This document shows, piece after piece, positions 23,746-63,222 of a stretch of 64,000 nt of DNA. A program made the position numbers and the translations under genes. Position 1 is the first letter of the stretch, and each line of letters begins with the position of its first letter. The stretch is from Candidatus Helarchaeota ASGARD archaeon Hel_GB_B (lineage in GTDB: Archaea; Asgardarchaeota; Lokiarchaeia; Helarchaeales; HEL-GB-B). The notes beneath the pieces were generated by a model. The model was not told the origin of the DNA, searched no databases, and saw only the letters and a list, made by a program, of their open reading frames with translations. The DNA lies in NCBI GenBank assembly GCA_005191425.1, contig SUPR01000001.1, positions 5,762 through 69,761 on the forward strand, in the 5' to 3' direction.

Positions 23746-25011
23746 TTGTATAATCGACATTCTTCAAAAACAATAATAGGAGCAGATAGTGAAATTTTGA
23801 AGGGTAAGAAAATTGCTTTATGCATAACAGGTTCGGTAGCAGCTATGCAGACACCAATTATAGCAAGAAATTTAATGAGATATGGTGCAGAAGTTTTTCC
23901 TGTAATGACTAAAGCGGCAACTGAATTAATTAATCCAAATACACTACAATGGGCTACTGGAAATGAAGTTATTACTAAACTTACTGGAAGAGTTGAGCAT
24001 ATTACTCTTGCAGGAGATGAAATTGGTCATGTTGATATTATCTTGGTCTGTCCTGCTACTGCCAATACAATTAGTAAAATTGCGTGCGGAATTGATGATA
24101 CACCAGTTACTACTGTGGTTACTACTGCATTTGGAACTGGAATTCCAATTATTATTGTCCCTGCAATGCATGAAACAATGTATAACCACCCAATAGTTAT
24201 GAAAAACATTAAAGAATTAGAAAAATATGGTGTTAAATTCGTCGGTCCTAGAGTTGAAGAGAAAAAGGCAAAACTTGCTAAAGTAGACGAAATTGTCAAT
24301 ACTGTGATTAAAGAATTAACTACAAAATCACAAGATTTAAAGGGACTTAAATTTCTCATAACAACTGGCCCTACAAGAGAATATATTGATGCGATTAGAT
24401 ATATTAGTAATCCATCAAGTGGTAAAATGGGATTAGAAATTGCTATTAATGCAAAAAATAGAGGTGCAGATGTAACTCTTATTTATGGTGAAGGTACTAC
24501 TGTAGATATTCCGTCATATTTTGAAACAATTAAAGTCACTTCTACTGAAGATCTTTCTAATGCTATTTGTAATGAATTAGAAAAAAAACATTACGATGTT
24601 TTTATTTGCGCAGCAGCTATTAGTGACTTTACTGCAGTAAATAAATTAGACGAGAAAATCTCCTCAACGACCCCTGAACTATTAGTAAAATTAAAGCCAA
24701 CGCCTAAATGTATTGATAGAGCCCGAGAGGTAGATAAAAATATATATATATGTGGATTTAAAGCAGAATATCGAGTTTCTGAAGAAGAATTGGTCCAAAG
24801 AGCAAGAACAAAAATGAATGAAGCAAACATTAATTTAATGGTAGCTAATGATGTCGGAAAAGAAAAAAGAGGATTTAACACTGAAACTAATGAAGTCTTT
24901 TTAGTTTCAAATGATACTGTTGTCCATCTACCATTAGAAAACAAAAAGAAAATAGCTTCCAAAATTATTGATCATATTATTGATGATTTAAATGCTAAGA
25001 AGGAAAATTAA
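23746..25011 (+). CDS. coaBC: Bifunctional phosphopantothenoylcysteine decarboxylase / phosphopantothenate-cysteine ligase
   Basis: N-terminal flavoprotein domain (KKIALCITGSVAAMQTP...PATANTISKIACGIDD). C-terminal CoaB domain (ITTGPTREYIDAIRYISNPSSGKMG). Confidence 0.85.
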   Translation: MYNRHSSKTIIGADSEILKGKKIALCITGSVAAMQTPIIARNLMRYGAEVFPVMTKAATELINPNTLQWATGNEVITKLTGRVEHITLAGDEIGHVDIILVCPATANTISKIACGIDDTPVTTVVTTAFGTGIPIIIVPAMHETMYNHPIVMKNIKELEKYGVKFVGPRVEEKKAKLAKVDEIVNTVIKELTTKSQDLKGLKFLITTGPTREYIDAIRYISNPSSGKMGLEIAINAKNRGADVTLIYGEGTTVDIPSYFETIKVTSTEDLSNAICNELEKKHYDVFICAAAISDFTAVNKLDEKISSTTPELLVKLKPTPKCIDRAREVDKNIYICGFKAEYRVSEEELVQRARTKMNEANINLMVANDVGKEKRGFNTETNEVFLVSNDTVVHLPLENKKKIASKIIDHIIDDLNAKKEN

Positions 25012-46760: not shown

Positions 46761-49700
46761 TTAAACTCTTGTAATTTTGGTAGATGAAGCCATCCAAATG
46801 GGTCCAATTATTTCGTGAATTAACGCTACCAAAGTTTCTTGTTGAGATACTAATGCAGTTAATTGTGTTAGGTCGTATTTTTCAGAATATGGTGCAATTA
46901 ATACTTCTTCACCGTCTCTACCAACTGCAAATAGGTTCATCTCAGGTCTTTGCCTTATTTGTACATTTCCTAATTCTAGCAACTCTCTAACCTGGTCTTT
47001 TGCTTCGTTCAAGATACGAGATGCAACAATTATTCTTATTCTTCGACTAGCGGATTTAATAGTTTCTAGAGGCAGGTCACTAAAATCAGGAGCTACAATA
47101 GATACAGTTGATTTTGTTCTCATAAGAATGTCCCGGATATATTCTTTTATTGCCTCAACACCTACTAATGGCCAAGTAAGTTCGCCGGATTTCGCTAGTA
47201 TATTAGTAGTTTCCTGCCATACTGCTCTTAGAAGTTGACTTACTTTTAAGGTTTCACCTTCAGCTTCTCTGAATGTAAATGCCGCATCTTTATTAGTGTT
47301 TGTAAGTCGCTCTGTTAATATAGAATCGGTTTCATCTAATTTTGCAGCTAATTTTTCATTTAATGAATTTGCGTTTGATTCATAGTCAGTTTGGTGTTGG
47401 CTAGCTAATTGTAGTAAATCAGTTTCTAGTTTTGCAGCATCTGCTTGGAATCCTGCGGCATGGTTGGAAATTGTTTCTTTACATTCCTCATAAGTTTTGG
47501 TAGTCAATTCTTTAATTTGTGCTAAATATTTATTATCAATTTCGTTTATATCGTTTTTTATTTGTGAAAATCCTTCATTCATAGTATTAGATATTTGCTC
47601 TTGGACATCATTTGCCATTTTATTAACTCGTTCGTTATCATTGTTGACAAAATCTTTAATAGTATTTTTCATTTGATTTAATGCTTCGTGGCCACGGTTT
47701 TTAACATCATCTACTCGTTTAATTTCGGTCTGTACTATATTTGCGACATCATCTTTTTTCTCGTCTATCGATTTATTCATATTAGCTGTTATTTCATCTA
47801 ATTCTCCTAACTTATTATCATCAATTTCTTGAAGATTTTTCTTATGCTCCTGGATTATATTTGCAAGCAATGAAATAGATTTATTACGAATTTCATGTGA
47901 TTGTGATTCAACATTACCTACTCTTAAGTCTAATGCTTTATAAAATTCATCACGCATTGAATCAAGTTCGTTTTGATATTCTTTGATTCTATCATCTAGA
48001 GTATCAGAAAGAACTTGCTCCAATTTACTTGTATCTTCTTGTAAAAGTTTATTTTGGCCGGAAATCTTGGATAAAAATTCGTCTTTCAATTTATTTAGTA
48101 AGTCGCTGTATCTTTTTATGACATCATCTGATTTACTAACTATCGAGTCCTTCATTTTGTAAAAATCTAATTCTATTGCTTCTACTTGAGAATTAATTAT
48201 TTCTTGAGACTGGTCACCATATTTAGAAGCATTATCCTTGAACCAATTTAAGTTATTATTATTATATTTGTCAAAAACAGCAGATACATTTTCCTTTTTA
48301 GTATTTATCGATGAAATTTCGGAACTGATAATATCAGCAAGATTTTCAGTAGTATCGTTTGACCATTTGTCTAAAGATTCATTTACCTTATCTTGATAGT
48401 CTTTAATATTTACTTCTAACTCTTTAACTAAATTTTTTGATGTTTCATTTATGGTATTAATTAATTGTTCATTAGCCCCGCGTTCTTCCTTAATTTTTTC
48501 ATTTAATTTTCTAATAGCATTATCAATAATTTCCTTAATTTCAGGTCTGTCTTTACTATATTCTTTTAATTCATTTTCCAGTTCTTTTTCCCAGTCACGG
48601 AGATTATGAATTGTTTTTGTTATTTCCCCTGATGAAACATTTTTAATTGAGTCGACCTTGGTCTGAATTTCGTCATGTAAAGTTTTCGATAAAGATTTTA
48701 TCTTATTTTTTTCTTCAGATTTCAGATTTTTAATTGAATTATTTGCTTTTGATTTTAAATCATCCAAATTTTTGTTTAAATTAGAAATACTTGCATCTAA
48801 TTCTTGATTGAATTCACTCCTTGCGGAATTTATTTCATCTGTTAATTGAGCTAAACGCTCGTCTAAATTCGAAGTTAATGTTTTTTCCAAATCAGTTGAC
48901 CCGGCTTGAAGCCTTTTAATTTGACTTGTAAATTTGTCAAGAAATTCCTGTTGTATATCACCAACTAATTGCTTGAACCTTGAAATTAAATCATTTGTAA
49001 AATTTGCTACATCATTTGTAAATTGATAGAATTCGGTATCTCGTTTAGTAATTTCATTATTAAACAATTTTTCAGCAGTTTCACGAAAATTGCTGGCTCT
49101 ATTTTTAAACCATTCCATATGATTATTTTGTGAATTTTGAATTTCAGACCTTAATTCCTTATCTTTTTCCCAAGTAGCTTCAATTTCCTTTTTTATCATT
49201 TCTAAGAATTCGTCTGATAAATTTTTATGCCATTCATCATAGGCAGTGTAATTTTGATTGCGATTACTATTAATAATATCATTTACTCCTTTGACATATT
49301 CGACCATTATTCGATCAGTGAATTCATCAAATACGCCATCAATGCGAGTATTAAGTAGATTTAATCCTTCTACATTTTCGGCAGAGACTTTATCGAGAAT
49401 TTCATTGCCGTAATTGTCCAAGACATTATCAATATTATTATTTAAATTATTTAATTCATTTTTATGTTCATCGGCTGTAGTATCATGTATATTTTTAGTT
49501 TTTTGCATTAATTCATTATATCTATTTTCCAGGTCATTAGCCAAAGTGTCTTCATATTCATGAATTAATTTATTGTGGTCATCATTACGCTGATTAAAAT
49601 TGTTAGTTATCTCTTCTTTTCTCGATTCCACATCAGAATTTAATTTTATTACTTGATTTGTAATTAAATTAGAAATTCCATCTCTAGCATTAATTGTATC

Positions 49701-50132
49701 TTTGGCAAATTGTTCTAATTGAGTATTTATAGCCTCTGCTACTTGATCTTTAAGAGTTATGACCTCTTGCTTTAAGTCATTAATATGTTTATTAATGTTA
49801 GAATCGAAATCCTCTCGTTGTTTGATAGTTTTTTCTCTATATTGATCCAAAAATTGAGTAAAGGCAGAATAAGGGACGACTGGCATATATCTATTTATAT
49901 CTTTAGCTGCTGAACCTATTGCAACAGCAAGGTTATTATCTAAAAATTTTTGTATTGTATTTCTCGCTTCTTCCATTGAGATATTTGCCAATGCCGCTAA
50001 AGATGATTCAGTTATATATCCTTTTGCATATAATGCGACAAAGGCTCTTGCTTCAGCTTCTGTTAATGTAACACCTCGTTCTTTAAAAGTATCTATAATT
50101 ATTTGAAACATATTTTGGTTTTGTACACTCAT
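46761..50132 (-). CDS. Giant (1123 aa) coiled-coil protein with an N-terminal TrmB-like winged HTH and a ~170-aa globular C-terminal domain
   Basis: N-terminus FQIIIDTFKERGVTLTEAEARAFVALYAKGYITESSLAALANISMEEARNTIQKFL is a TrmB-type wHTH. About 850 aa of E/K/N/D-rich heptad-like sequence with no Walker motifs. The C-terminal domain is non-repetitive. Confidence 0.7.
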   Translation of the reverse strand: MSVQNQNMFQIIIDTFKERGVTLTEAEARAFVALYAKGYITESSLAALANISMEEARNTIQKFLDNNLAVAIGSAAKDINRYMPVVPYSAFTQFLDQYREKTIKQREDFDSNINKHINDLKQEVITLKDQVAEAINTQLEQFAKDTINARDGISNLITNQVIKLNSDVESRKEEITNNFNQRNDDHNKLIHEYEDTLANDLENRYNELMQKTKNIHDTTADEHKNELNNLNNNIDNVLDNYGNEILDKVSAENVEGLNLLNTRIDGVFDEFTDRIMVEYVKGVNDIINSNRNQNYTAYDEWHKNLSDEFLEMIKKEIEATWEKDKELRSEIQNSQNNHMEWFKNRASNFRETAEKLFNNEITKRDTEFYQFTNDVANFTNDLISRFKQLVGDIQQEFLDKFTSQIKRLQAGSTDLEKTLTSNLDERLAQLTDEINSARSEFNQELDASISNLNKNLDDLKSKANNSIKNLKSEEKNKIKSLSKTLHDEIQTKVDSIKNVSSGEITKTIHNLRDWEKELENELKEYSKDRPEIKEIIDNAIRKLNEKIKEERGANEQLINTINETSKNLVKELEVNIKDYQDKVNESLDKWSNDTTENLADIISSEISSINTKKENVSAVFDKYNNNNLNWFKDNASKYGDQSQEIINSQVEAIELDFYKMKDSIVSKSDDVIKRYSDLLNKLKDEFLSKISGQNKLLQEDTSKLEQVLSDTLDDRIKEYQNELDSMRDEFYKALDLRVGNVESQSHEIRNKSISLLANIIQEHKKNLQEIDDNKLGELDEITANMNKSIDEKKDDVANIVQTEIKRVDDVKNRGHEALNQMKNTIKDFVNNDNERVNKMANDVQEQISNTMNEGFSQIKNDINEIDNKYLAQIKELTTKTYEECKETISNHAAGFQADAAKLETDLLQLASQHQTDYESNANSLNEKLAAKLDETDSILTERLTNTNKDAAFTFREAEGETLKVSQLLRAVWQETTNILAKSGELTWPLVGVEAIKEYIRDILMRTKSTVSIVAPDFSDLPLETIKSASRRIRIIVASRILNEAKDQVRELLELGNVQIRQRPEMNLFAVGRDGEEVLIAPYSEKYDLTQLTALVSQQETLVALIHEIIGPIWMASSTKITRV

Positions 50133-50146
50133 TTTATATTTCCTCC

Positions 50147-52030
50147 TTATGAACTACCTCCTTCTATGGCTACTTTTGTTCTATTTAACTTTTCTACAAA
50201 ATCAGCCAACCCTAAATTTTGGAATTTTTGAATGGAATCCTCCAAAATGTCCTTGGCTTTATCTACTTGCCCTTGAATTGCATATACATTTGATAAGTTA
50301 GTATAAAATTGCCATGCATAAAAATATTCATTATTTGAAAAGAATGTCTTTGCTGCTTTTGTTAGTACATTTATTACTTCATTTGTGGCATTTATTTCTT
50401 CGAAATACTTTTTAGCTTGAGTATAGTTTGCTCTGGCTAATGGATATGCCTTGTCCTTAATGCAATCTTCGGCTTTTTCGACAAATAAATTAGCCAATTT
50501 ATTTATTAATTCTTTCACTTTTTCGGGTTCTCCTAAGCTTCTATTTACATCAATTGCATTAATGAGGACATCCCTGCCATAATCTAATAACCCTTTTTCG
50601 AGGAACTTTTCTGTAAAACTTTCCAAAATATTTGCGGCTTTTTCTTTTTCATTAACTTTTACGAGACTATCCCCTGCAAGTAATATAAACTTAAAAACTT
50701 CATTATAATATCCATAATTATAATAATTCATAGCTATATCATAATAACCATTTGCGATATGCTCAACTGCAGATACCAGTCCCGCTGTTAGAGAATCAGA
50801 TCTTAGACGTTCTAATTCTTCGAATTGAAAATCTTCCAATAATCTTCCATTTTCAGCCAAATTCATTGCAACTTTAATTAGACCTCTTGCTTGCGCATCT
50901 ACTGCAATATCACCCAAACTACTTCGTAAATAAATCCAAAAACTGTCTAATGTAATATAATAAACACTATCTTCTTTACTCAAATATTTTCCAATCATTT
51001 TTTCAAGTATTGGTTTGATATCTTCACTTTTTGCGCCAATCGAACGAGCTATTATATCAATATCTGCAAAATTTGCATTTTCCATTGCAAATGACTGTAA
51101 TATTTTTCTTTCGTCCTCAGTTAATTCTTTAAGTTCTCGTCCAAAACCTTCTTTAACTCCGCCTTCAGCTTTAAACCATACATCTTTACCTAGTTCTCTT
51201 GTATCGCCTCTATTTTCATACAACCATCCGCCATTATAAACTAAATAAAGAGGAATTCCACCACTATGTCTTAATAAATTCTCTTTTATCTCTTCACTAA
51301 ATTTAATTCCTGCTGCATCTGCTCTTTTATCAAGTAATTCTATTGCATCAGCATTATTTAAAGTTGGTAAACCTATTTCGTGAAAATCCTCTAATACATA
51401 ACGAACTTTTGGATAATACTTTTCCCAAACAGACATCAAAAAGAGAACAGGGAGGTTTGGATTTTTTACATCCGTTTTTATAGCGTCTACTATTGCTTTT
51501 AATACATCAAATGCATTGTCATGATTTAATATTATAAATCTTTCAACAAGATTAGAAACAATTAGAATACCTTTTTTATTGAATTTATTACCTTGAATAT
51601 TTTTAATAATTTTAGGTAATTTTTTAACAATTTTTTTCAAAAAAGAATCAATATACTTACTCATATCAGGGATTTCATAGCTGCTTTTTAAAAGCGGAGC
51701 TTTTTTACCTGGTTTTGTAATAGGTTTCTTTTTGTCCACGGGTTTCGTTATTTCATCTAATTCATTGCTTATTACATCGAAATAACCTTCAATATTTATC
51801 AATGGTACATCATATCTAATTACCAGAAAACCATTTGATGAAGCTATGGACTCGATTTGTTTTAAAAAACTTCTTCTACCAATTCCTTCGCGTCCATGTA
51901 ATATTAAGCCATGTGAAATATTTTCTCGGTCAGCTATTTTTTGCAAAATTCCTGAAAATTGATCTATTTCTCTTTTTCTTCCCACAAAGAATTTCGCTGG
52001 GCATGTTTCTAATTTAAATGGGTCCGTCAT
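50147..52030 (-). CDS. Arch-ATPase-like (PF01637-type) P-loop protein with a C-terminal TPR-like helical repeat region; the Walker A is degenerate
   Basis: FVGRKREIDQFSGIL...LILHGREGIGRRSFLKQIE aligns with the Arch_ATPase block FvGRe.El..L...vyGpRRvGKTsLl, but the Walker A Lys-Thr is replaced (GIGRRS). The C-terminal ~250 aa has TPR/helical repeats (YYNYGYYNEVF..., AWQFYTNLSNVYAIQGQVDKA). Confidence 0.6.
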   Translation of the reverse strand: MTDPFKLETCPAKFFVGRKREIDQFSGILQKIADRENISHGLILHGREGIGRRSFLKQIESIASSNGFLVIRYDVPLINIEGYFDVISNELDEITKPVDKKKPITKPGKKAPLLKSSYEIPDMSKYIDSFLKKIVKKLPKIIKNIQGNKFNKKGILIVSNLVERFIILNHDNAFDVLKAIVDAIKTDVKNPNLPVLFLMSVWEKYYPKVRYVLEDFHEIGLPTLNNADAIELLDKRADAAGIKFSEEIKENLLRHSGGIPLYLVYNGGWLYENRGDTRELGKDVWFKAEGGVKEGFGRELKELTEDERKILQSFAMENANFADIDIIARSIGAKSEDIKPILEKMIGKYLSKEDSVYYITLDSFWIYLRSSLGDIAVDAQARGLIKVAMNLAENGRLLEDFQFEELERLRSDSLTAGLVSAVEHIANGYYDIAMNYYNYGYYNEVFKFILLAGDSLVKVNEKEKAANILESFTEKFLEKGLLDYGRDVLINAIDVNRSLGEPEKVKELINKLANLFVEKAEDCIKDKAYPLARANYTQAKKYFEEINATNEVINVLTKAAKTFFSNNEYFYAWQFYTNLSNVYAIQGQVDKAKDILEDSIQKFQNLGLADFVEKLNRTKVAIEGGSS

Positions 52031-54971: not shown

Positions 54972-55475
54972 ATGCAAGTCTATATTACAACACTTGGGCG
55001 ATCTGAATGGGCAGTTATCAATAGTTATTATGCAGTTGTTAAAAATAAGAGATATTACCCAGATTTAATTTATATCATAACTGAAGATTTGTTCCAAGAT
55101 AGAATTCACAAGATAATAGATGGTCTAAATATCATTTCAAATGAGTTTGGATTTAATCCAGAATATAAATTGACAATTGTAAAAGAATCCGAGTTTTCTG
55201 ATGCAAAGAATAAAATCGATATAATCGCAAAAGATTTAGAAAATTCTAATAATATGATTGCCGTAGATATTACATCTGGTCGAAAAGTATTAGTAATTAA
55301 TATTCTCTTATTAATATTCTATTCAAAAATAAAAGTTCAACATATTTTTTATTTAGCAATAAAGACAATTAAAGGGGTTAATAAACCATATGAAATGATA
55401 CCAATTCAAATTCAATCATTAAGAGATTTTATCCAAGAAATTAATGAGGTGAAAAATAGACCAAATGGCACATGA
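54972..55475 (+). CDS. CARF-domain protein (cyclic-oligoadenylate sensor-like Rossmann domain), standalone
   Basis: MQVYITTLGRSEWAV (compare the Csm6/Csx1 TLGTS loop) and AVDITSGRKVLVI (compare the CARF D-[IL]-T-[SH]-G-[TF]-[KR] motif). Length 167 aa. Confidence 0.55.
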   Translation: MQVYITTLGRSEWAVINSYYAVVKNKRYYPDLIYIITEDLFQDRIHKIIDGLNIISNEFGFNPEYKLTIVKESEFSDAKNKIDIIAKDLENSNNMIAVDITSGRKVLVINILLLIFYSKIKVQHIFYLAIKTIKGVNKPYEMIPIQIQSLRDFIQEINEVKNRPNGT

Positions 55476-56472
55476 AACAATAATTAATCCCCCAGAATTA
55501 CAAATTTTATTGAACAAATTTGACGACTATTCGATATCATTTCCTGCTTTTTCTAAAGATACAATTTTAACTGCAACACCATTTAATGATTGTTATAAAA
55601 TAAAAGTAAATGATAATTATTTTGATTCCGATCGAGATGGTCTTAACATTTTTAACGATATTTATTATTCAGAAATACCAAATAATCAAGATTTTCTAGA
55701 ATGTCTCTTGTCAAGTAATTGTATTACCTATCCTAACGTGGGAGATTTTGAGTATATAAGAAAATCATATAAAAATATCCATAAAAAGGTATATTTTGCT
55801 GTGGATACAAATATTCTCTATCATAGGTTTATCTCTTTCTCTAAATTAAAAGAAGAGAAAATCGTATTAGCACCTACCATTAAAGATGAAATAGAGTCAT
55901 CAATAAATTATAAATATAATAGGGAGGAAATTAATGAAATTAAAAAAATTGTAAGATATAACAAAAATTTATTTGATGAATTTAGAAATAGACGCATAAA
56001 AAAGTCAAGAAAGGCAGCATATCTTGCATTAAATGAGCTAAAACTTTTAAATATCCTTAATATAGACAGCGTAAAAATAGAGCAAGAAAATTATGAACAA
56101 AATGATTTAAAAATTGTTAGAGAGTTAAAAGCTTTTGAAAATGACTCAGGAGCGTTGGTAGTATTATTAACAGCAGATAGAGCAATGGTAGATTTCTGCA
56201 GAATAGAGTCCTTAGATTATTTTAATTTTGATTATCCAAACACATTTAATATAAATACATGTTCGGCACAACAATTTAGGTCTTTAATTTTTAATTTAGC
56301 CGTTGTTTTTGGATTTATAAAATTAAATTCGACAATAATATTCGGCGAATTTTCAGGAAAACACGAGTTAGACAATTTGAAAATTAGATTTTTAAACAAA
56401 AACTTGTATAATAAATTCGAAAAAGATTTAAGCATCTGCCGGAAGTTAGAAAAACTAAATTTTGATTTTTAA
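55465..56472 (+). CDS. PIN-domain nuclease with a ~110-aa N-terminal domain of unknown function; overlaps the CARF gene by 11 nt
   Basis: VYFAVDTNILYHRF (first Asp), PTIKDEIE (Glu), VVLLTADRAMVDF (third Asp), ESLDYF; the spacing fits the PIN fold. Confidence 0.5.
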   Translation: MAHETIINPPELQILLNKFDDYSISFPAFSKDTILTATPFNDCYKIKVNDNYFDSDRDGLNIFNDIYYSEIPNNQDFLECLLSSNCITYPNVGDFEYIRKSYKNIHKKVYFAVDTNILYHRFISFSKLKEEKIVLAPTIKDEIESSINYKYNREEINEIKKIVRYNKNLFDEFRNRRIKKSRKAAYLALNELKLLNILNIDSVKIEQENYEQNDLKIVRELKAFENDSGALVVLLTADRAMVDFCRIESLDYFNFDYPNTFNINTCSAQQFRSLIFNLAVVFGFIKLNSTIIFGEFSGKHELDNLKIRFLNKNLYNKFEKDLSICRKLEKLNFDF

Positions 56473-56677
56473 AAATAATTTAAAACGAAATAAAAGTTCA
56501 TTTTTTACTAATTATTATTTTTTTATATTAATTTTATAGAATTTATAGAATTTTTATAATCTATATAAATTTTGAAATCTTTAACAAATTAAGAATTTTA
56601 TATGGTAAACTTTTTAAAAGTTTATAGTTTTCAAAACTTGAAAAAAATGGTGTTGTCATTTATGAAAAGGTGTCATA

Positions 56678-57589
56678 TTGGAACGAGTTAAAGTATTTGT
56701 CCCGGGCCATTTAACTGGCTTTTTTGAAATTTGCAATGGACCTAATTTATTATCGACCGGTTCTAGAGGCGGTGGGTTATCGATCAATAGTGGTATGCTT
56801 ACTGAAATTTTAGTTAAAAATTATGATGAAGATGTAATTAATATAAAAATTAATGGTAAAAAAGTAAATAATGCAATTGTAAGTAAATATATTGTAGATT
56901 ATTTTTTGAAACAAGTAAAACCAAATAATTATTATGTAGAAATAAATCATACTACTGAATTTCCAATTGGAAATGGGTTTGGGATGTCTGGGGGTGGTGC
57001 TTTAGGAATTTCCTATGGATTGAATATACTCTTAGAGTTGAACAAAACTAGGAATGAATGCGCTCAGATTGCACATATAGCAGAAGTAAATAGTAAGACG
57101 GGTTTAGGTGATGTGATTGCACAAACCTTTGGAGGCGTAGAGATAAGAGTGGAACCTGGAGCACCTGGAATTGGAGTTCTAGAAAATATACTATTTATCC
57201 CAAATTTGAAGGTAGTTTGTTATACAAATGGAAAAATAGATACTAATTCAATTATAAGTAATAAAGATCGAATAAATGATATTAATAAAGCTGGGAATAT
57301 GTTAGTAAAAAAACTATTGAAATCACCATCTATTTCCAATTTAATGGAATTATCATTCCAATTTGCTCAAAGTTCTGAGCTGATAACGGATGATGTTTTA
57401 GATTTATTAAAAATCCTTCATTCATATGGGTTTCAAAATGCATCTCAGATTATGTTAGGTCGTTCAATTTTTTGTATAGTAAATGAGAATGAAGTGGATA
57501 AAGTTAAAGAAATAATTAATGACCATACGTCTAAAGGAAATATATTTATTGCAAATATTGACAATCAAGGAGCAAGAATAATAGGTTAA
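56678..57589 (+). CDS. GHMP-family kinase, candidate archaeal pantoate kinase
   Basis: GHMP motif PIGNGFGMSGGGALG. Start VFVPGHLTGFFEI. Sits at the head of the pantoate/CoA cluster. Confidence 0.55.
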   Translation: MERVKVFVPGHLTGFFEICNGPNLLSTGSRGGGLSINSGMLTEILVKNYDEDVINIKINGKKVNNAIVSKYIVDYFLKQVKPNNYYVEINHTTEFPIGNGFGMSGGGALGISYGLNILLELNKTRNECAQIAHIAEVNSKTGLGDVIAQTFGGVEIRVEPGAPGIGVLENILFIPNLKVVCYTNGKIDTNSIISNKDRINDINKAGNMLVKKLLKSPSISNLMELSFQFAQSSELITDDVLDLLKILHSYGFQNASQIMLGRSIFCIVNENEVDKVKEIINDHTSKGNIFIANIDNQGARIIG

Positions 57590-57594
57590 TATAA

Positions 57595-58401
57595 ATGATA
57601 GAAATACCAGATGATCATCCAAGGGCTGAATCGCTTAGAATAAGGCATGTAATGGAAAAAGGATACATGAATAGAATTGTTGCATTAGCAGGGTTAATTG
57701 CACATGGTAGAGGAGAAGCTTTTGATTACATTATTGGAGAGAAAACAACTCCTCCAGCATTAAAGTCAATAGAAGCAGCATTATCTATGATTAAATTAGC
57801 AAAATATCCAGTATTTAGTATTAACGGAAATACAGCGGCTCTTGCACCAAATGAGATTGTCAAATTTGCAGAAATCTCGGGAATAAAATTGGAAATCAAT
57901 TTGTTTTATAGAACGGAGGAACGTATACAGGCGATTAAAAAACATTTATTAGATGTAGGGGCTAAAGAACTTTTTGGTATCTCAGATAGAAAAGCACAAA
58001 TTCAGGAGTTATCAAGCAATAGAAGGTTTGTTGATAAAGATGGAATATTAAAATCAGATGTAATATTAGTACCTTTAGAAGATGGAGATAGGACTGAAGC
58101 ACTAAGAAAAATGGGAAAAATAGTTATTGCCATTGATTTAAATCCTCTCAGTAGAACTGCCCAATGGGCAAATATTACTATAGTAGATAATTTTTTAAGA
58201 GTTATTAAATTATTTATTGAAAAATGGCCAGATATTGAAAAAAAATCAGAATCAGAACTAAAACAAATAGTGAGAAATTTTGATAATAAAGAGAATTTAA
58301 GAGAAATGATAAAATATTCAATTGATTATTTAAATAAAATTTCAAATAAAGGAATATATATTGATGAAGTTTTGAATTTCGGATATAAAATAAGAATATA
58401 G
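57595..58401 (+). CDS. Candidate archaeal phosphopantothenate synthetase (4-phosphopantoate:beta-alanine ligase, COG1701-like)
   Basis: About 270 aa. Conserved-looking N-terminal HPRAESLRIRHVMEKGY...GLIAHGRGEAFDYIIGE. Lies between the GHMP kinase and panE. Identity rests mainly on context and a remembered family pattern. Confidence 0.45.
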   Translation: MIEIPDDHPRAESLRIRHVMEKGYMNRIVALAGLIAHGRGEAFDYIIGEKTTPPALKSIEAALSMIKLAKYPVFSINGNTAALAPNEIVKFAEISGIKLEINLFYRTEERIQAIKKHLLDVGAKELFGISDRKAQIQELSSNRRFVDKDGILKSDVILVPLEDGDRTEALRKMGKIVIAIDLNPLSRTAQWANITIVDNFLRVIKLFIEKWPDIEKKSESELKQIVRNFDNKENLREMIKYSIDYLNKISNKGIYIDEVLNFGYKIRI

Positions 58402-58408
58402 TGATTAT

Positions 58409-59722
58409 ATGAGTAAAAATTATAGTGAGAATGTAAAAGTCCAAGTTGCACTTGATTTAATGAATCTTGATCGTGCTGTTCAGATTGCTAAAGAAGCTGT
58501 TGAAGGTGGAGTAGATTGGATAGAAGTAGGGACACCATTAATAAAGTCAGAAGGAATGAATGCAGTTAGAACGCTTAAAAAAGAATTTCCAGACCATAAA
58601 ATTGTAGCAGATATGAAAATTATGGATGTTGGAAGTTTAGAAGTAGAAATGGCTTCTAAAGCAGGGGCAGATATTGTAATAATTTTAGGTGTTAGTGATA
58701 ATTCTACTATTTTGGAGGCTGTTGAAGCGGGTAAAAAATATGGGTCCCAAATTATGGTAGATTTAATTAATGTAAATAATTATATTGAGCGAGCTATTAC
58801 TTTAGAAAAAATGGGTGTAGACATAATCTGTATTCACATTGGAATAGACCAGCAAGTTTTGGGTATGAACCCTGTGAAAATAACAAAAGAAATAAATGAG
58901 GTAATTTCTAATGTAAAATTGGCTATTGCAGGTGGTCTTAATTCAGAGACTGCACCTTTAGCTGTAGAAGCAGGTGCTGAAGTTCTTATCATTGGGCATG
59001 CTATAACGGCTGCTGAAAGCCCCACAGAAGCAGTCAAAACAATTAAAAAGGCAATAAAAACTGGAAAACCGATTGAATCAAAATTGATGAAAAAATATAA
59101 CGAACAAGAATTTTATAAAGTCTTTTCATTAGTTTCAACTCCAAATATCTCAGATGCAATGCACAGACACCCATGTCTTGAGGGTATACGACCTGTTTGG
59201 AAAGGTGCGAAATTAGTCGGGAGAGCAGTAACTGTAAGATGTTATAATGGTGATTGGAGTAAACCAGTTGAAGCAATAGATATAGCACAAAAAGGAGACG
59301 TTATTGTAATTGATGAGGGTGGAGGCGACATTGCAGTTTGGGGAGAATTAGCCAGCTGGTCATGCAAAATGAAAGGGATTAATGGAGTAGTTATCGATGG
59401 CGCAATTAGAGATGTTGAGGACATAGCAAAAATTGAGTTCCCTGCATTTTCTAGATTCATAAAGTCCAATGCAGGAGATCCTAAAGGTTTTGGCGAGGTT
59501 AATATTGAAATTGACTGCGGAGGACAAAAAATTAGACCAGGTGATTGGATAATTGGTGATGATAATGGTGTTATTGTTATTCCAAAGGAAAAAGCTCAAG
59601 AGATGGCAAATAGAGCAATAATGATCCATGAAAATGAAAATCGAATTAGAGAAGAAATTAAAAGAGGTAGTACTTTATCTAAAGTTTTGAAATTAAAAAA
59701 ATGGGAAAAAGTATTAGGTTAA
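58409..59722 (+). CDS. Fusion protein: N-terminal 3-hexulose-6-phosphate synthase-like (OMPDC-family TIM barrel) plus C-terminal RraA/MenG-like (class II aldolase/decarboxylase family)
   Basis: N-terminal VQVALDLMNLDRAVQIAKEAVEGGVDWIEVGTPLIK...IVADMKIMDVG (HPS/KGPDC-type). C-terminal ISDAM...GRAVTV...KGDVIVIDEGGGDIAVWGELAS...GVVIDGAIRDVEDI...FPAFSRF (RraA family). Confidence 0.7.
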   Translation: MSKNYSENVKVQVALDLMNLDRAVQIAKEAVEGGVDWIEVGTPLIKSEGMNAVRTLKKEFPDHKIVADMKIMDVGSLEVEMASKAGADIVIILGVSDNSTILEAVEAGKKYGSQIMVDLINVNNYIERAITLEKMGVDIICIHIGIDQQVLGMNPVKITKEINEVISNVKLAIAGGLNSETAPLAVEAGAEVLIIGHAITAAESPTEAVKTIKKAIKTGKPIESKLMKKYNEQEFYKVFSLVSTPNISDAMHRHPCLEGIRPVWKGAKLVGRAVTVRCYNGDWSKPVEAIDIAQKGDVIVIDEGGGDIAVWGELASWSCKMKGINGVVIDGAIRDVEDIAKIEFPAFSRFIKSNAGDPKGFGEVNIEIDCGGQKIRPGDWIIGDDNGVIVIPKEKAQEMANRAIMIHENENRIREEIKRGSTLSKVLKLKKWEKVLG

Positions 59723-59732
59723 GGTTATATAA

Positions 59733-60650
59733 TTGAAGATTGGTGTTATGGGCGCCGGAGCAATTGGAAGTTTATTTGGTGGCTATTTAAAAAAGTCAGG
59801 GCAAGATGTTATCCTAATAGGAAAAGAATGGAACGTAAAACCCATTAAAGAACATGGACTGGAGCTTGTTCCTTTTAATTCTGAGGATACTCTGAACATA
59901 AAAATAGAAGCAACAACTGACCCTGCTACGTGTGGATTCCAAGATTTGGTAATTTTAACAGTAAAAGCTTATGACACAAAATCAGCGCTAATTGATGCAG
60001 AACCAATAATAAAATCTGGACACACTCGTATTTTATGTTTACAAAATGGTTATGGTACCGAAATTATAGCATCACAATTATATGGCAAATCTTCAACATT
60101 AAGAGGTGTAACTTCACATGGAGCAGTTATTACACCCGGGCACGTAATTCACACTGGTTTAGGTGATACGTTTATTGGTCAGTTAGACCCTAACACCAAA
60201 ATTGATGATATTATAGAAATTTTCAATCAAGCTAATATAAAAACAAAATTTGTTGAAAACATCCAAGATATTATTTGGAGTAAAGTATTGGTTAATGCTT
60301 CAATAAATCCATTTGGCGCATTAACAAAATTAAGAAATGGTCAATTACTTGAAAATTCTGATATTGTAGAATGTATGAAACAAGTTATAAGGGAAGGAGT
60401 TAATGTCCTTAATTCACATGGAATAAAATTAAATATCAATAATGCAATTGAAAATGCAATTAGAGTAGCCAAAATGACTGCGTTGAATAAAAACAGTATG
60501 TTGCAAGACATTGAGAAAGGACGCCGTACAGAAATAGATTATATAAATAAAGCGATATCAGAATTAGGTAAAGAAAATGGGATAAAAACCCCTATGAATT
60601 ATTTATTAACTGCTTTGATAAAAGGATTAGAATATTCTATTAAAAATTAA
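59733..60650 (+). CDS. panE: 2-dehydropantoate 2-reductase (ketopantoate reductase)
   Basis: MKIGVMGAGAIGSLFGGYL Rossmann; ApbA/PanE length and C-terminal helical domain. Confidence 0.75.
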   Translation: MKIGVMGAGAIGSLFGGYLKKSGQDVILIGKEWNVKPIKEHGLELVPFNSEDTLNIKIEATTDPATCGFQDLVILTVKAYDTKSALIDAEPIIKSGHTRILCLQNGYGTEIIASQLYGKSSTLRGVTSHGAVITPGHVIHTGLGDTFIGQLDPNTKIDDIIEIFNQANIKTKFVENIQDIIWSKVLVNASINPFGALTKLRNGQLLENSDIVECMKQVIREGVNVLNSHGIKLNINNAIENAIRVAKMTALNKNSMLQDIEKGRRTEIDYINKAISELGKENGIKTPMNYLLTALIKGLEYSIKN

Positions 60651-60663
60651 ATGGTTTAATAAA

Positions 60664-61866
60664 ATGCAAGAATTTGGAGTACCTGAAAAAGAAATTATTT
60701 TAAGACTAACAAAACTATTAAAAGACGATAAAAAATATGACTCAGGAAGAATTCTTGGGTCTATGTGTACAAAACCACTTACTATTGCAATAAAAATTTA
60801 CCAAGATTTTTTCGATAAAAACTTAGGAGACCCCGGATTATTTCCTGCAACATGGGCTATTGAACGCGATGTTATACGTATGATGAGTACTTTATTAAAT
60901 AATCCAAACGGTGTCGGTTACTGCTGCTCGGGTGGTACTGAGGCAAACCTTATTGCAATGAGAATGGCAAGAAATTCTCATGATATTAAACATCCAGAAA
61001 TTATTGTCCCTCTTTCAGCTCATGCTTCATTTGATAAAGCAGCTGATTTAATGAATTTAGACATAATTAAAGTACCTTTAAATGAAAATTATCAAGTTGA
61101 CGTTGAAGGCGTGAGAGCTGCTATTTCAAAAAATACCGTTGCGATTGTTGGAATTGCTGGGACTACATCATTAGGTGTCATTGACCCAATCAAAGAATTA
61201 AATGAAATTGCTATAGAAAATGACATATATTTTCACGTGGACGCGGCATTTGGTGGACTTGTTTTGCCATTTTTAAAACGACTTGGATATAATATCCCTA
61301 AATTTGACTTTACTCTTGATGGTGTTAAATCAATTACAGCAGACCCACATAAAATGGGAATGTCTCCGATAGGTACTGGTGGTATAATTTTTAGAGATGC
61401 CTCAATTGTTAGGTCCAATGCTTTTGAAATACCATATCTAGCTGGTGGTAATTTTAAACAGGCAACAATAATAGGAACGAGGTCTGGAGCATCAGTAATA
61501 GCAACATGGGCAATATTCAAATATTTAGGAATAGATGGCTACTCAAAAATAGTTAAAAAATGTATGAATCTTACACATATCCTTTCAAAAGGAATTAAAC
61601 AAATTGATGGCGTATCTCCAGTGATAGACCCAATTATTAATATAGTGGGCTTTGAGTCTGACCGCTACAATATACATACTATTGATAGGGAATTAAGAAA
61701 ACGGGGATGGGCTTTAGGTGCATTTCCAAATTTCTTAAGAATTGTAGTAATGCCGCATATTAGAAAATGCCATATTGATGAATTTTTATCTGACTTAGAA
61801 GATATTGTTCATCATTTAAAGGAAAAATCAAGTTATGTACAAAAAACACCCGTAAAAGCATTTTAA
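60664..61866 (+). CDS. mfnA: MfnA-type PLP-dependent decarboxylase (archaeal L-aspartate/L-tyrosine decarboxylase; likely beta-alanine supply for CoA)
   Basis: GSMCTKP, GGTEANLIAM, SITADPHKMGMSPIGTGGIIFRD (PLP-Lys). 400 aa. Confidence 0.75.
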   Translation: MQEFGVPEKEIILRLTKLLKDDKKYDSGRILGSMCTKPLTIAIKIYQDFFDKNLGDPGLFPATWAIERDVIRMMSTLLNNPNGVGYCCSGGTEANLIAMRMARNSHDIKHPEIIVPLSAHASFDKAADLMNLDIIKVPLNENYQVDVEGVRAAISKNTVAIVGIAGTTSLGVIDPIKELNEIAIENDIYFHVDAAFGGLVLPFLKRLGYNIPKFDFTLDGVKSITADPHKMGMSPIGTGGIIFRDASIVRSNAFEIPYLAGGNFKQATIIGTRSGASVIATWAIFKYLGIDGYSKIVKKCMNLTHILSKGIKQIDGVSPVIDPIINIVGFESDRYNIHTIDRELRKRGWALGAFPNFLRIVVMPHIRKCHIDEFLSDLEDIVHHLKEKSSYVQKTPVKAF

Positions 61867-62082
61867 TATCACAATTTTTTTGTCCTATTATATATTATAC
61901 TACCTATTTACTTTTTTTGATTACTCTTAATGAGTTTATTAATTTTAATATTCTAAATAATTCTTGTTTTGAATCCTAAACTCTTCTGAACATTAATTTT
62001 TTAGCATGAGTTCAAAATTTTTATAAATTTATATTTTATTTTTGATTTTATATTAGAAAATTATATTATATTTAAGGTCTTT

Positions 62083-63222
62083 ATGATGGAAAATGATTAT
62101 AAAATGGAGTTAGAAGCTCTACCATATTTTAAACAACATAAATCTTATCAAGTTTCTACACATGCCCATGATAGATTAGTTGCAAATTATGGACATTTAA
62201 AAAAGTTTTATGAACAAGGTATAAAACATAGAGATCATGTATCTATCGGCCCTGGAGAAACCTTCACATTCCCAGAAATGATTGGCCCCGGAAAAATTAA
62301 CAATATATGGTTTACAGCAATGCCTATGATAAAAGCCAAAAAAGGACAACCTATGAAAGAGCCAAAAAGTATTTTAACTTTACTTAGACGCCCTAATTTA
62401 TTAAAAAGAATAAATAAATATCATAAATTCCCATTTTTATTAAAACATCTATATATTAGAATATATTTTGATAATTCTAAAACTCCAAGTGTTGACGCCC
62501 CTTTTGGTGTCTTTTTCGGCTCGGGATTTGGAGAGTACAAACATTTTATGTCTAGATATATTGGTATGACGGCAGGTTCTTACATTTGTCAATTTCATAT
62601 GCCTTTTTGGAAAAAAGCTAAAGTAGAGATAGTTAATACATTAGAAGATAGAGGCATTTTGGCTTTTTTTGGAGCCATTACATATATGCGATATGATTCA
62701 GATAAATATCTCGAAAATCAAGGATATTTTCATGCAAAATATTATAGTGAAGAACCTACTTCTGAAAAAAAACCATATACAATTCTTGATATACCTAATG
62801 GTAAAGGACATTTTATGGGTCTAGTTTTAAATACGCAGAGTTTAAAAAGAAAAAATGGCTTTTTAAATCTAGAAGGAAATATGGAAATCTATGTTGATGG
62901 AGAAACAGAACCTTCATTGGAATATACTGGGACTGAAGATGTATTTCAAGGTGCATGGTATTATACAAAATTGAGCACAAGAAATCAATCAGAATTTTAT
63001 ACTCCGTATCATGGACTGACAGTTAAATCGTTAAATAAATGGGACACAATAATGGGATATTTACTTCAACCAAGAATACATTGTAAATCTAGTCAATATA
63101 GATTCTTTCCTGAAGGTATACCATTTAAAAAAAGCTTTAAATGTATAATTCATCATGGAGAATTTGACGAAATCCCTTGTAATTATAATTCTGTAGCTTA
63201 TTGGTATCAAAACACACCATAA
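62083..63222 (+). CDS. Hypothetical protein (possibly a DUF2961-like beta-sandwich)
   Basis: ORF of 379 aa; GTEDVFQGAWYY and IGPGKINNIWFT blocks are reminiscent of DUF2961, from memory only. Confidence 0.35.
   Translation: MMENDYKMELEALPYFKQHKSYQVSTHAHDRLVANYGHLKKFYEQGIKHRDHVSIGPGETFTFPEMIGPGKINNIWFTAMPMIKAKKGQPMKEPKSILTLLRRPNLLKRINKYHKFPFLLKHLYIRIYFDNSKTPSVDAPFGVFFGSGFGEYKHFMSRYIGMTAGSYICQFHMPFWKKAKVEIVNTLEDRGILAFFGAITYMRYDSDKYLENQGYFHAKYYSEEPTSEKKPYTILDIPNGKGHFMGLVLNTQSLKRKNGFLNLEGNMEIYVDGETEPSLEYTGTEDVFQGAWYYTKLSTRNQSEFYTPYHGLTVKSLNKWDTIMGYLLQPRIHCKSSQYRFFPEGIPFKKSFKCIIHHGEFDEIPCNYNSVAYWYQNTP

Follow-up and report, generated by a model that had tools for sequence, protein, structure and literature searches.

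A fusion of 3-hexulose-6-phosphate synthase with an RraA-like aldolase domain is a candidate ketopantoate-forming enzyme in archaeal phosphopantothenate operons

A five-gene cluster in a Helarchaeota genome

A 64,000-nt stretch of DNA (hereafter the window) from the metagenome-assembled genome (MAG) of Candidatus Helarchaeota archaeon Hel_GB_B (contig SUPR01000001.1) carries five closely spaced genes on the + strand, the third of which encodes a fusion of an HPS (3-hexulose-6-phosphate synthase) domain with an RraA-like domain (Table 1), and it is the role of this fusion in the synthesis of pantothenate and coenzyme A (CoA) that is considered here. The five open reading frames (ORFs) listed in a first-pass annotation of the same DNA were all recovered at the same positions, with intergenic gaps of 5, 7, 10, and 13 nt from the first gene to the fifth (ORF coordinates), and the identities it had given them, pantoate kinase (PoK), phosphopantothenate synthetase (PPS), HPS and RraA-like fusion, ketopantoate reductase (PanE), and MfnA, were borne out by profile and solved-structure matches. 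The G+C content of the cluster region (~28–33%) is similar to that of the remainder of the window.

The first ORF matches the solved pantoate kinase 6JBC over its full length (E = 8e-43), 38 orders of magnitude ahead of the next GHMP structure (2e-5). Its best NCBIfam models are the two pantoate kinase equivalogs, neither of which it passes (197 vs a cutoff of 500, and 145 vs 380), and its Atabeyarchaeia ortholog passes KOfam K06982. The PPS ORF scores 336 bits on NF010324 (cutoff 227) and 288 bits on NF041123, slightly under the cutoff of 300, and matches the solved PPS 3WDK at E = 6e-68, while the PanE ORF scores 271 bits on TIGR00745 (cutoff 141). The last ORF, presumed to be an aspartate decarboxylase supplying beta-alanine, matches the solved Tyr/Asp decarboxylases 6JY1 (2e-97) and 3F9T, both at about E = 1e-97. 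PoK and PPS, the pair that marks an archaeal phosphopantothenate operon, are thus both present in the window and, as judged from these matches, the five genes form an archaeal-type phosphopantothenate (CoA precursor) operon. The window also encodes CoaBC, covering the next pathway steps after the cluster, at an unlinked position 32 kb upstream (phmmer with the Bathyarchaeota CoaBC, 2e-126).

Table 1. Features of the cluster and of related genes in the window
Feature	Position	Strand	Details
Intergenic region upstream of the PoK gene; presumed to hold the promoter of the five genes	56473..56677	.	205 nt, AT-rich
Pantoate kinase (PoK)	56678..57589	+	303 aa, TTG start; PF00288 (GHMP N-terminal domain)
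Phosphopantothenate synthetase (4-phosphopantoate--beta-alanine ligase, PPS)	57595..58401	+	268 aa; PF02006 236 bits
HPS + RraA-like (HMG/CHA-aldolase-like) fusion	58409..59722	+	437 aa; NF005442 660.6 bits
HPS (3-hexulose-6-phosphate synthase) domain of the fusion	58436..59044	+	aa 10-212; PF00215; TIGR03128
RraA-like / class II 2-oxo-acid aldolase-like domain of the fusion	59138..59578	+	aa 244-390; PF03737 163 bits
Ketopantoate (2-dehydropantoate) reductase PanE	59733..60650	+	305 aa, TTG start; PF02558 + PF08546
MfnA-type pyridoxal phosphate (PLP) decarboxylase	60664..61866	+	400 aa; TIGR03812 500 bits (cutoff 299)
Oligo-T tracts right behind the final stop codon; the transcription unit probably ends here	61867..61920	+	TATCACAATTTTTTTGTCC...CTTTTTTTGATT
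CoaBC (phosphopantothenoylcysteine synthetase/decarboxylase)	23746..25011	+	PF02441 + PF04127

Domains and conserved residues of the fusion

Profiles PF00215 and PF03737 confirmed both of the domains that the first-pass annotation had assigned to the fusion, and beyond the RraA-like domain there are conserved C-terminal helices (aa 393–436). The HPS half scores 231.6 bits on TIGR03128 HxlA, above the cutoff of 200, and aligns over ~200 aa to the HPS part of the solved HPS-PHI protein 9LJ9 (E = 8e-61). In a comparison of 105 archaeal and bacterial fusions, including those located in the slot of PanB (see below), residues D16, E39, D68, K70, D73, D118, and H143 of this half are invariant, and E39, D68, K70, D73, and H143 correspond in 105/105 to E33, D62, K64, D67, and H136 of KGPDC, the Mg2+-binding and catalytic residues of the OMPDC suprafamily. 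KGPDC positions 112, 139, and 169, the significance of which reportedly emerged from work in the Gerlt laboratory, are taken here to discriminate between HPS and KGPDC. The equivalent positions of the fusion (118, 146, and 174) carry D, I/V/L, and A (I146 in the window), which is HPS-type rather than KGPDC-type and matches E112D/R139V/T169A, the substitutions in 1XBX, a KGPDC mutant enhanced for HPS. The HPS half is predicted to catalyze the interconversion of hexulose-6-phosphate with ribulose-5-phosphate and formaldehyde.

For the RraA-like half, the best solved match is the Pseudomonas putida HMG/CHA aldolase 3NOJ (E = 2.5e-22). The pair R334-D335 (nt 59408–59413) aligns to Arg123-Asp124 of 3NOJ and is invariant in 105/105 fusions, and E313 aligns to D102 of 3NOJ and is conserved in 104/105. 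We take Arg123 to be catalytic and Asp124 to be metal-binding in 3NOJ, roles that reportedly come from work in the Seah laboratory. An RraA motif, G-X20-R-D-X2-E/D, was not used, as 3NOJ (RDTQT) did not fit it, and the comparison was based on the alignment to R123 and D124. In an AlphaFold2 (AF2) model (mean pLDDT 87.8) the individual domains are confidently predicted, with the N-terminal half superposing on the solved HPS structures 3F4W and 3AJX (TM 0.92) and the C-terminal half on 3NOJ (TM 0.80). None of the solved structures searched is of a full HPS-RraA fusion.

Family membership and annotation

The first-pass annotation had regarded the fusion architecture as unusual, a view that did not hold: the protein passes the NCBIfam NF005442/PRK07028 equivalog (cutoff 593 bits; aa 8–434 aligned to positions 3–428 of the 430-position model), a catalogued family that is abundant, with at least 8000 homologs in databases and at least 560 metagenome loci. 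Homologs are 55–65% identical across Asgard lineages, Bathyarchaeota, Nezhaarchaeota, Thermoplasmata, Archaeoglobi, and others. A protein annotated in a Candidatus Helarchaeota MAG matches the fusion at 100% identity. The family name, 'bifunctional hexulose-6-phosphate synthase/ribonuclease regulator', describes the domains and not a tested function, and we know of no E. coli-type RNase E degradosome in Archaea.

The fusion scores below the cutoffs of the neighboring families. It does not belong to the HPS-PHI fusions (NF041755; KEGG K13831), on which it reaches 229.8 bits vs 500 over aa 10–231 only; a PHI/SIS domain is absent from the fusion and its C-terminal half is PF03737 in Pfam. It likewise falls short of the LigK/PcmE equivalogs (TIGR02798, 115.7 vs 304.5; NF006731, 127.6 vs 179), of the equivalogs for the RraA regulator of RNase E (NF006875, 63.1 vs 136; TIGR02998, 39.3 vs 241), and of the Fae-HPS fusion equivalog (139 vs 274). 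The fusion (COG0269+COG0684) has been labeled 'hps-phi', K13831, or 'HPS/PHI fusion protein' in two Asgard reconstructions (PMC11291895, PMC10307638), and many JGI protein names likewise call it HPS/PHI (e.g., window 58409–59722; locus L011 8001–9314). Because the fusion fails NF041755 and carries PF03737 rather than SIS, the K13831 and 'HPS/PHI' labels are, going by its domains, misassignments, and inferences about the ribulose monophosphate (RuMP) pathway that use the fusion as a source of PHI may be wrong.

Absence of panB from the window and from a closed genome

A hidden Markov model (HMM) of PanB (KPHMT; PF02548) built from five PDB sequences had no match at E ≤ 10 in the fusion or in the six-frame translation of the 64-kb window, in agreement with the first-pass annotation, which had seen no panB-like gene there. 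The same HMM recovers true PanB in three metagenome loci (L058, L100, and L101, described below) at 1e-101 to 1e-136. Any resemblance of the fusion to PanB is one of analogy, not of family membership.

In the closed Atabeyarchaeia-1 genome the identical five-gene cluster is present as genes 1060–1064, with KOfam assignments, in gene order, of K06982 (PoK), K09722 (PPS), K13831/K08093/K10218 (fusion), K00077 (PanE), and K18933 (MfnA). CoaBC (gene 2640), IlvD, and GlyA are also present, and the complete published KOfam table of this genome contains no K00606 (panB), no PanC, and no PanD. By these assignments, Atabeyarchaeia-1 is a complete genome that carries the cluster without a recognizable PanB. 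It further encodes, apart from the cluster, a Fae-HPS (gene 459) and a PHI (gene 708) that would serve bulk RuMP flux. The fusion is not the sole HPS of this organism, which argues for a dedicated role.

Gene neighborhoods in archaea and metagenomes

The gene order of the window recurs, in whole or in part, across several archaeal lineages. Beyond the identical cluster of Atabeyarchaeia-1, the order is PoK-PPS-fusion-PanE-CoaBC in the P0064 lineage and PoK-PPS-fusion-PanE-CoaBC-PPAT in Bathyarchaeota, while in Nezhaarchaeales the fusion lies directly upstream of PanE alone. In two Thermoplasmatota genomes MfnA is convergent with the fusion and 7–8 nt from its stop codon, and in a Promethearchaeota lineage PanE is located ~3 kb from the fusion. 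The same or a similar order was found at metagenome loci L020–L022, L024, L063, L067, L070, L081, and L097. Spacings in these recurring archaeal-type clusters are mostly <30 nt, or the genes overlap. The Bathyarchaeota operon is the most complete in that all of its genes except the fusion are CoA enzymes; ketopantoate formation is the sole step between 2-oxoisovalerate and dephospho-CoA to which no gene corresponds, and the fusion is the sole gene with no role in the pathway.

The loci with an MfnA-type decarboxylase gene convergent with the fusion, those of the two Thermoplasmatota genomes included, are L004 (11306–12448, −), L010 (7329–8483, −), and L070. The adjacency to the beta-alanine step is conserved even without PoK, PPS, or PanE nearby.

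Using a metagenome scan ranked by similarity to the fusion only, it was possible to draw an unbiased sample consisting of the best 80 of at least 560 loci. A pantothenate (pan) or CoA gene was present within 3 kb of the fusion at 12 of the 80 loci (7 of 30 clusters at 70% identity), and at 10 of the 80 a pan/CoA gene lay on the same strand within 200 nt. The chance expectation for such a neighbor is ~3–6%, giving a rough P of ~2e-3 to 5e-6 depending on the assumptions. Among the 105 loci in total, a pan/CoA link occurs in 10 of the 36 sequence clusters; loci L100–L106 were chosen after L058 had been seen and are illustrative, not a random sample. When neighbors were pooled and classified with Pfam, the only coherent recurring families were PPS upstream (the top family at position −1) and PanE downstream.

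A 334-aa protein with DUF362 and 4Fe-4S ferredoxin domains, the gene for which starts ~18 nt before the stop codon of the fusion, accounts for 15 of 84 downstream neighbors (L033–L038, L041, L042, L045, L047, L048, L052, L061, L073, and L096; e.g., L035 8260–9261). It is a conserved partner of the fusion in one large Thermoplasmata-like clade. The possibility that it acts as another ketopantoate reductase or as a partner in the pathway was weighed, and no support for it was found at the 15 loci.

Apparent displacement of panB in Chloroflexota pan operons

The fusion also occurs in bacterial pan operons, a link found by applying the PanB HMM and Pfam to the pooled neighbors; phmmer queries derived from the window alone missed the bacterial-type pan genes. 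At metagenome locus L058 a bona fide PanB gene directly follows the fusion, the homologs of which are named as Dehalococcoidales/Chloroflexota and, in some cases, Desulfobacterales. The bacterial fusions are 81–90% identical to each other, have an N-terminal extension of ~29 aa, and share 73% identity with a Promethearchaeota fusion and 47–58% with the other archaeal fusions compared (L058 vs L105). Because they are closest to the Promethearchaeota fusion, the sequences suggest an inter-domain transfer from Asgard-like archaea to Chloroflexota.

These operons differ in the state of panB. On a 2.17-Mb contig (L100) and at L101 the order is PanG(DUF2520)-PanD-PanB-PanC-fusion, at L058 it is PanD-PanD-fusion-PanB-ABM-PanC, at L079 it is PanD-fusion-[panB remnant]-PanC, and at L103 and L104 (the latter on a 74-kb contig) it is PanG-PanD-fusion-PanC. 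A passage in PMC4572677 that cites Miller 2013 describes DUF2520 proteins as ketopantoate reductases of the PanG type. The fusions of L079 and L058 share 92% identity, the DNA of the two loci is 84% identical across PanD-fusion, and the panB remnant of L079 consists of the last 41 codons only (HMM positions 227–261 of 261). At L104 a 68-nt spacer keeps an ~18-nt trace of the panB 3′ end, as seen in L079. Within one clade, panB is thus found first together with the fusion, then truncated, and then gone, with the fusion left in the panB slot. The link of the fusion to pantoate/pantothenate synthesis holds with archaeal-type and bacterial-type downstream enzymes alike. The fusion is not a strict either/or replacement of PanB everywhere, as seen in some Dehalococcoidales, in which it shares an operon with an intact PanB (L058, L100, and L101).

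Two features specific to these loci were noted besides. At L058 two tandem genes for pyruvoyl-type PanD (aspartate decarboxylase; 187–567 and 596–973) precede the fusion, and an ABM-domain gene lies between PanB and PanC that is absent from the relatives that lost panB.

Proposed function of the fusion

The common denominator of all the linked clusters is the pantoate branch, and we are highly confident that the fusion is functionally linked to pantoate/pantothenate synthesis. It is also rather probable that the fusion is the ketopantoate-forming enzyme. Formally, ketopantoate results from aldol addition of formaldehyde to 2-oxoisovalerate, and archaea already run the HPS reaction in the cleavage direction for pentose synthesis. 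In the proposed scheme, PHI would make D-arabino-3-hexulose-6-phosphate from fructose-6-phosphate and the HPS half would cleave it to ribulose-5-phosphate and formaldehyde. The RraA-like half, acting as a divalent-metal class II 2-oxo-acid aldolase, would enolize metal-bound 2-oxoisovalerate, with R334 polarizing the carbonyl and D335 and E313 holding the metal, and would add the formaldehyde to the enolate to give ketopantoate. PanE would convert ketopantoate to pantoate, which PoK would then phosphorylate, and PPS would join beta-alanine, provided from aspartate by MfnA, to yield 4′-phosphopantothenate. The net effect would be that the hydroxymethyl carbon of pantoate comes from C1 of a hexose phosphate and not from methylene-tetrahydrofolate.

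The partner domains of HPS-PHI and Fae-HPS handle the substrate or product of HPS and, by analogy, the aldolase half of the fusion would use the formaldehyde that is released. We infer which substrates are used, in which direction the HPS reaction runs, and that formaldehyde may be channeled; channeling between the two halves is speculative, and the AF2 model speaks neither for nor against it. According to a passage in PMC7073904 that cites Sugantino 2003, the PanB of Mycobacterium tuberculosis condenses formaldehyde and 2-oxoisovalerate without tetrahydrofolate (THF). We hold with moderate confidence that both steps of the mechanism take place, with the HPS half releasing formaldehyde and the aldolase half adding it to 2-oxoisovalerate. 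The broadest form of the proposal appears to us finely balanced between credible and doubtful: that the fusion makes ketopantoate on its own, independently of folate and methanopterin and with direct hand-over of formaldehyde, fills the first CoA step, long missing, in many archaea (Asgard archaea, Bathyarchaeia, Nezhaarchaeota, and probably others), and, having been transferred from Asgard-like archaea, is displacing PanB in Chloroflexota. Full-text literature searches returned no link of the HPS-RraA fusion to ketopantoate, pantothenate, or CoA. What looks new against the literature searched is the function proposed for the fusion, together with its displacement of PanB; both the family to which the protein belongs and the pathway around it were known before.

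Weighing of the evidence

The non-orthologous route to ketopantoate that the first-pass annotation had put forward gains from the recurrent gene order, the panB-less Atabeyarchaeia-1, the Chloroflexota series, and the invariant sites, and loses from the wide occurrence of the fusion outside CoA contexts and from its presence in operons with PanB. Several observations weigh against the fusion as a ketopantoate-forming enzyme. Occurrence outside CoA contexts, which the first-pass annotation had named among the outcomes that would count against its idea, is widespread: 68 of the 80 unbiased loci and 23 of the 30 clusters are without a pan/CoA gene within 3 kb, including the largest clade (the Thermoplasmata-like one with the DUF362/4Fe-4S gene downstream), and no pan/CoA neighbor was found at the other Thermoplasmata, Archaeoglobi, and 'Methanobacteriota' loci examined. 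L058, L100, and L101 keep an intact PanB in the same operon, where the fusion could assist PanB rather than replace it. The absence of panB from Atabeyarchaeia-1 is that of a published above-threshold KOfam table, for the MAG of the window it is an absence from the 64-kb window, and for L079, L103, and L104 it is an absence at the locus. The orientation of the two domains in the AF2 monomer model is uncertain (pTM 0.58), with no reliable interface, and we know of no member of the RraA/HMG-CHA aldolase family that uses 2-oxoisovalerate or formaldehyde.

The main rival explanation starts from the operons that hold both genes. The fusion would itself make no ketopantoate and would be a one-carbon (C1) supply module, the HPS half of which gives formaldehyde to PanB or another hydroxymethyltransferase, either as such or once it has condensed spontaneously with THF or tetrahydromethanopterin (H4MPT), and the RraA-like half would be an accessory for oxaloacetate decarboxylation or scavenging. 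The bona fide HPS half and the intact PanB in the operons of L058, L100, and L101 fit this explanation, as do PanB variants that, according to a passage in PMC7073904, accept free formaldehyde. We nonetheless consider it unlikely, as it leaves Atabeyarchaeia-1 without any ketopantoate-forming enzyme, does not explain the in situ deletion of panB with retention of the fusion at L079, L103, and L104, and does not account for an aldolase catalytic pair that is invariant throughout the fusions.

That the fusion is an ordinary RuMP enzyme, an HPS for pentose-phosphate synthesis or formaldehyde fixation that came to lie in CoA operons by accident or hitch-hiking, is how published reconstructions and annotations ('HPS-PHI', 'HPS/ribonuclease regulator') treat it, and the canonical HPS half and the majority of loci without a pan/CoA neighbor are in keeping with this. 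Chance placement is hard to reconcile with linkage in 10/36 clusters, well above expectation and across two domains of life, and with linkage to two non-homologous versions of the pathway (PoK/PPS vs PanC/PanD/PanG). Further, the fusion lacks a PHI/SIS domain (NF041755, 230 vs the cutoff of 500), Atabeyarchaeia-1 already has Fae-HPS and PHI, and the conserved aldolase half is left unexplained, so that we regard this explanation as very unlikely.

Equally little credence is given to another pathway-linked role of the RraA-like half, be it a different 2-oxo acid aldol reaction (e.g., pyruvate + formaldehyde to 4-hydroxy-2-oxobutanoate), oxaloacetate decarboxylation, or RraA-like regulatory protein binding: HMG/CHA aldolases do also decarboxylate oxaloacetate and act on pyruvate (3NOJ, NF006731 names) and RraA proper is a protein inhibitor (E. 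coli RraA), but none of the proposed products feeds PanE, PoK, PPS, or PanC, the RraA equivalog scores are far under cutoff (63 vs 136; 39 vs 241), the aldolase catalytic pair is invariant, and the position in the PanB slot points to the ketopantoate step.

Comparison with known systems

The archaeal phosphopantothenate pathway of Thermococcus kodakarensis (PMC6650551) shares with the window PoK, PPS, PanE, and a PLP-dependent aspartate decarboxylase, the genes for which are clustered in the window. It differs in that T. kodakarensis uses canonical KPHMT (PanB), whereas the window cluster has the fusion instead. With PanB (EC 2.1.2.11) the fusion would share the product and the metal-assisted enolization of 2-oxoisovalerate followed by C1 addition; in Chloroflexota the two fill the same place in the operon (L104 vs L100 and L101), and PanB itself can use free formaldehyde. 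The two have no sequence or fold relationship, and PanB uses 5,10-methylene-THF, whereas the fusion would take its carbon from hexulose-6-phosphate in a folate-free manner.

The reaction proposed for the C-terminal half is exactly that of 2-dehydropantoate aldolase, or 'ketopantoaldolase' (EC 4.1.2.12; 2-oxoisovalerate + formaldehyde = 2-dehydropantoate), an activity that was reported from E. coli extracts in the 1950s and to which, to our knowledge, no dedicated gene has been assigned. It is an activity without a sequence, is not linked to the family of the fusion, and probably reflects the THF-independent side reaction of PanB.

The closest relatives by fold are the HMG/CHA aldolase (LigK/PcmE; 3NOJ) and the catalytic RraA-like proteins (PF03737), which share with the C-terminal half the fold (TM 0.80), the Arg123-Asp124 pair, and an acidic residue at position 102, and presumably, by analogy, the same class II metal-enolate mechanism. 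Identity is 24% only, the fusion adds the HPS domain and the conserved C-terminal helical tail, and its proposed nucleophile (2-oxoisovalerate) and electrophile (formaldehyde) are different. HPS-PHI (9LJ9, Thermococcales type) and Fae-HPS have a closely related HPS domain joined to a partner that handles an HPS substrate or product, with PHI supplying hexulose-6-phosphate and Fae capturing formaldehyde. In the fusion, an aldolase takes the place of the isomerase or Fae as partner, and the genomic link is to CoA synthesis and not to sugar/C1 metabolism.

Implications for archaeal CoA synthesis

Pantothenate/CoA synthesis has ketopantoate formation as its first committed step, for which many archaeal genomes lack a recognizable PanB. 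This gap was reportedly pointed out already when the archaeal CoA pathway was first reconstructed, by Genschel in 2004. The 2019 paper on the 'entire pathway' still predicts further analogous enzymes (PMC6650551). The fusion provides a concrete, cloneable candidate for the missing archaeal step. If the proposed function is correct, it would constitute a new activity in the RraA/HMG-CHA aldolase family and a physiological role for the very abundant 'HPS/ribonuclease regulator' family. A sugar phosphate, not folate, would be the source of a biosynthetic C1 unit, and pantoate synthesis would be wired to the reverse RuMP pathway and not to the C1-folate pool. It would also correct the RuMP-pathway inferences of Asgard reconstructions that read the fusion as HPS-PHI, and would make available, for the biocatalysis of pantoate or of hydroxymethylations, a module that needs no THF.

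Other genes in the window

Directly downstream of the cluster, beyond a 216-nt spacer, there is a DUF2961 protein (198 bits; 62083–63222, +) that appears unrelated to CoA synthesis. Immediately upstream of the cluster lies an overlapping pair of genes encoding a 167-aa protein with a Csa3_N/CARF-like Rossmann domain (54972–55475, +) and a 335-aa PIN_4-domain protein (55465–56472, +), which, by its domains, resembles a CARF-sensor and nuclease ancillary or defense module. The ORF for the topoisomerase VI B-subunit (25832–29878, +) is 1348 aa long, about twice the usual length, with the HATPase domain at aa 292–413 and the transducer at aa 1080–1237, so that it contains large insertions, possibly inteins or extra domains. 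On the opposite strand, an ORF of 1122 aa (46761–50132, −) has apolipoprotein-like coiled-coil repeats below the Pfam cutoff and adjoins an ORF of 626 aa (50147–52030, −) with a weak SNAP/TPR-like match; the two could be Asgard 'eukaryotic signature'-type proteins or merely low-complexity coiled coils.

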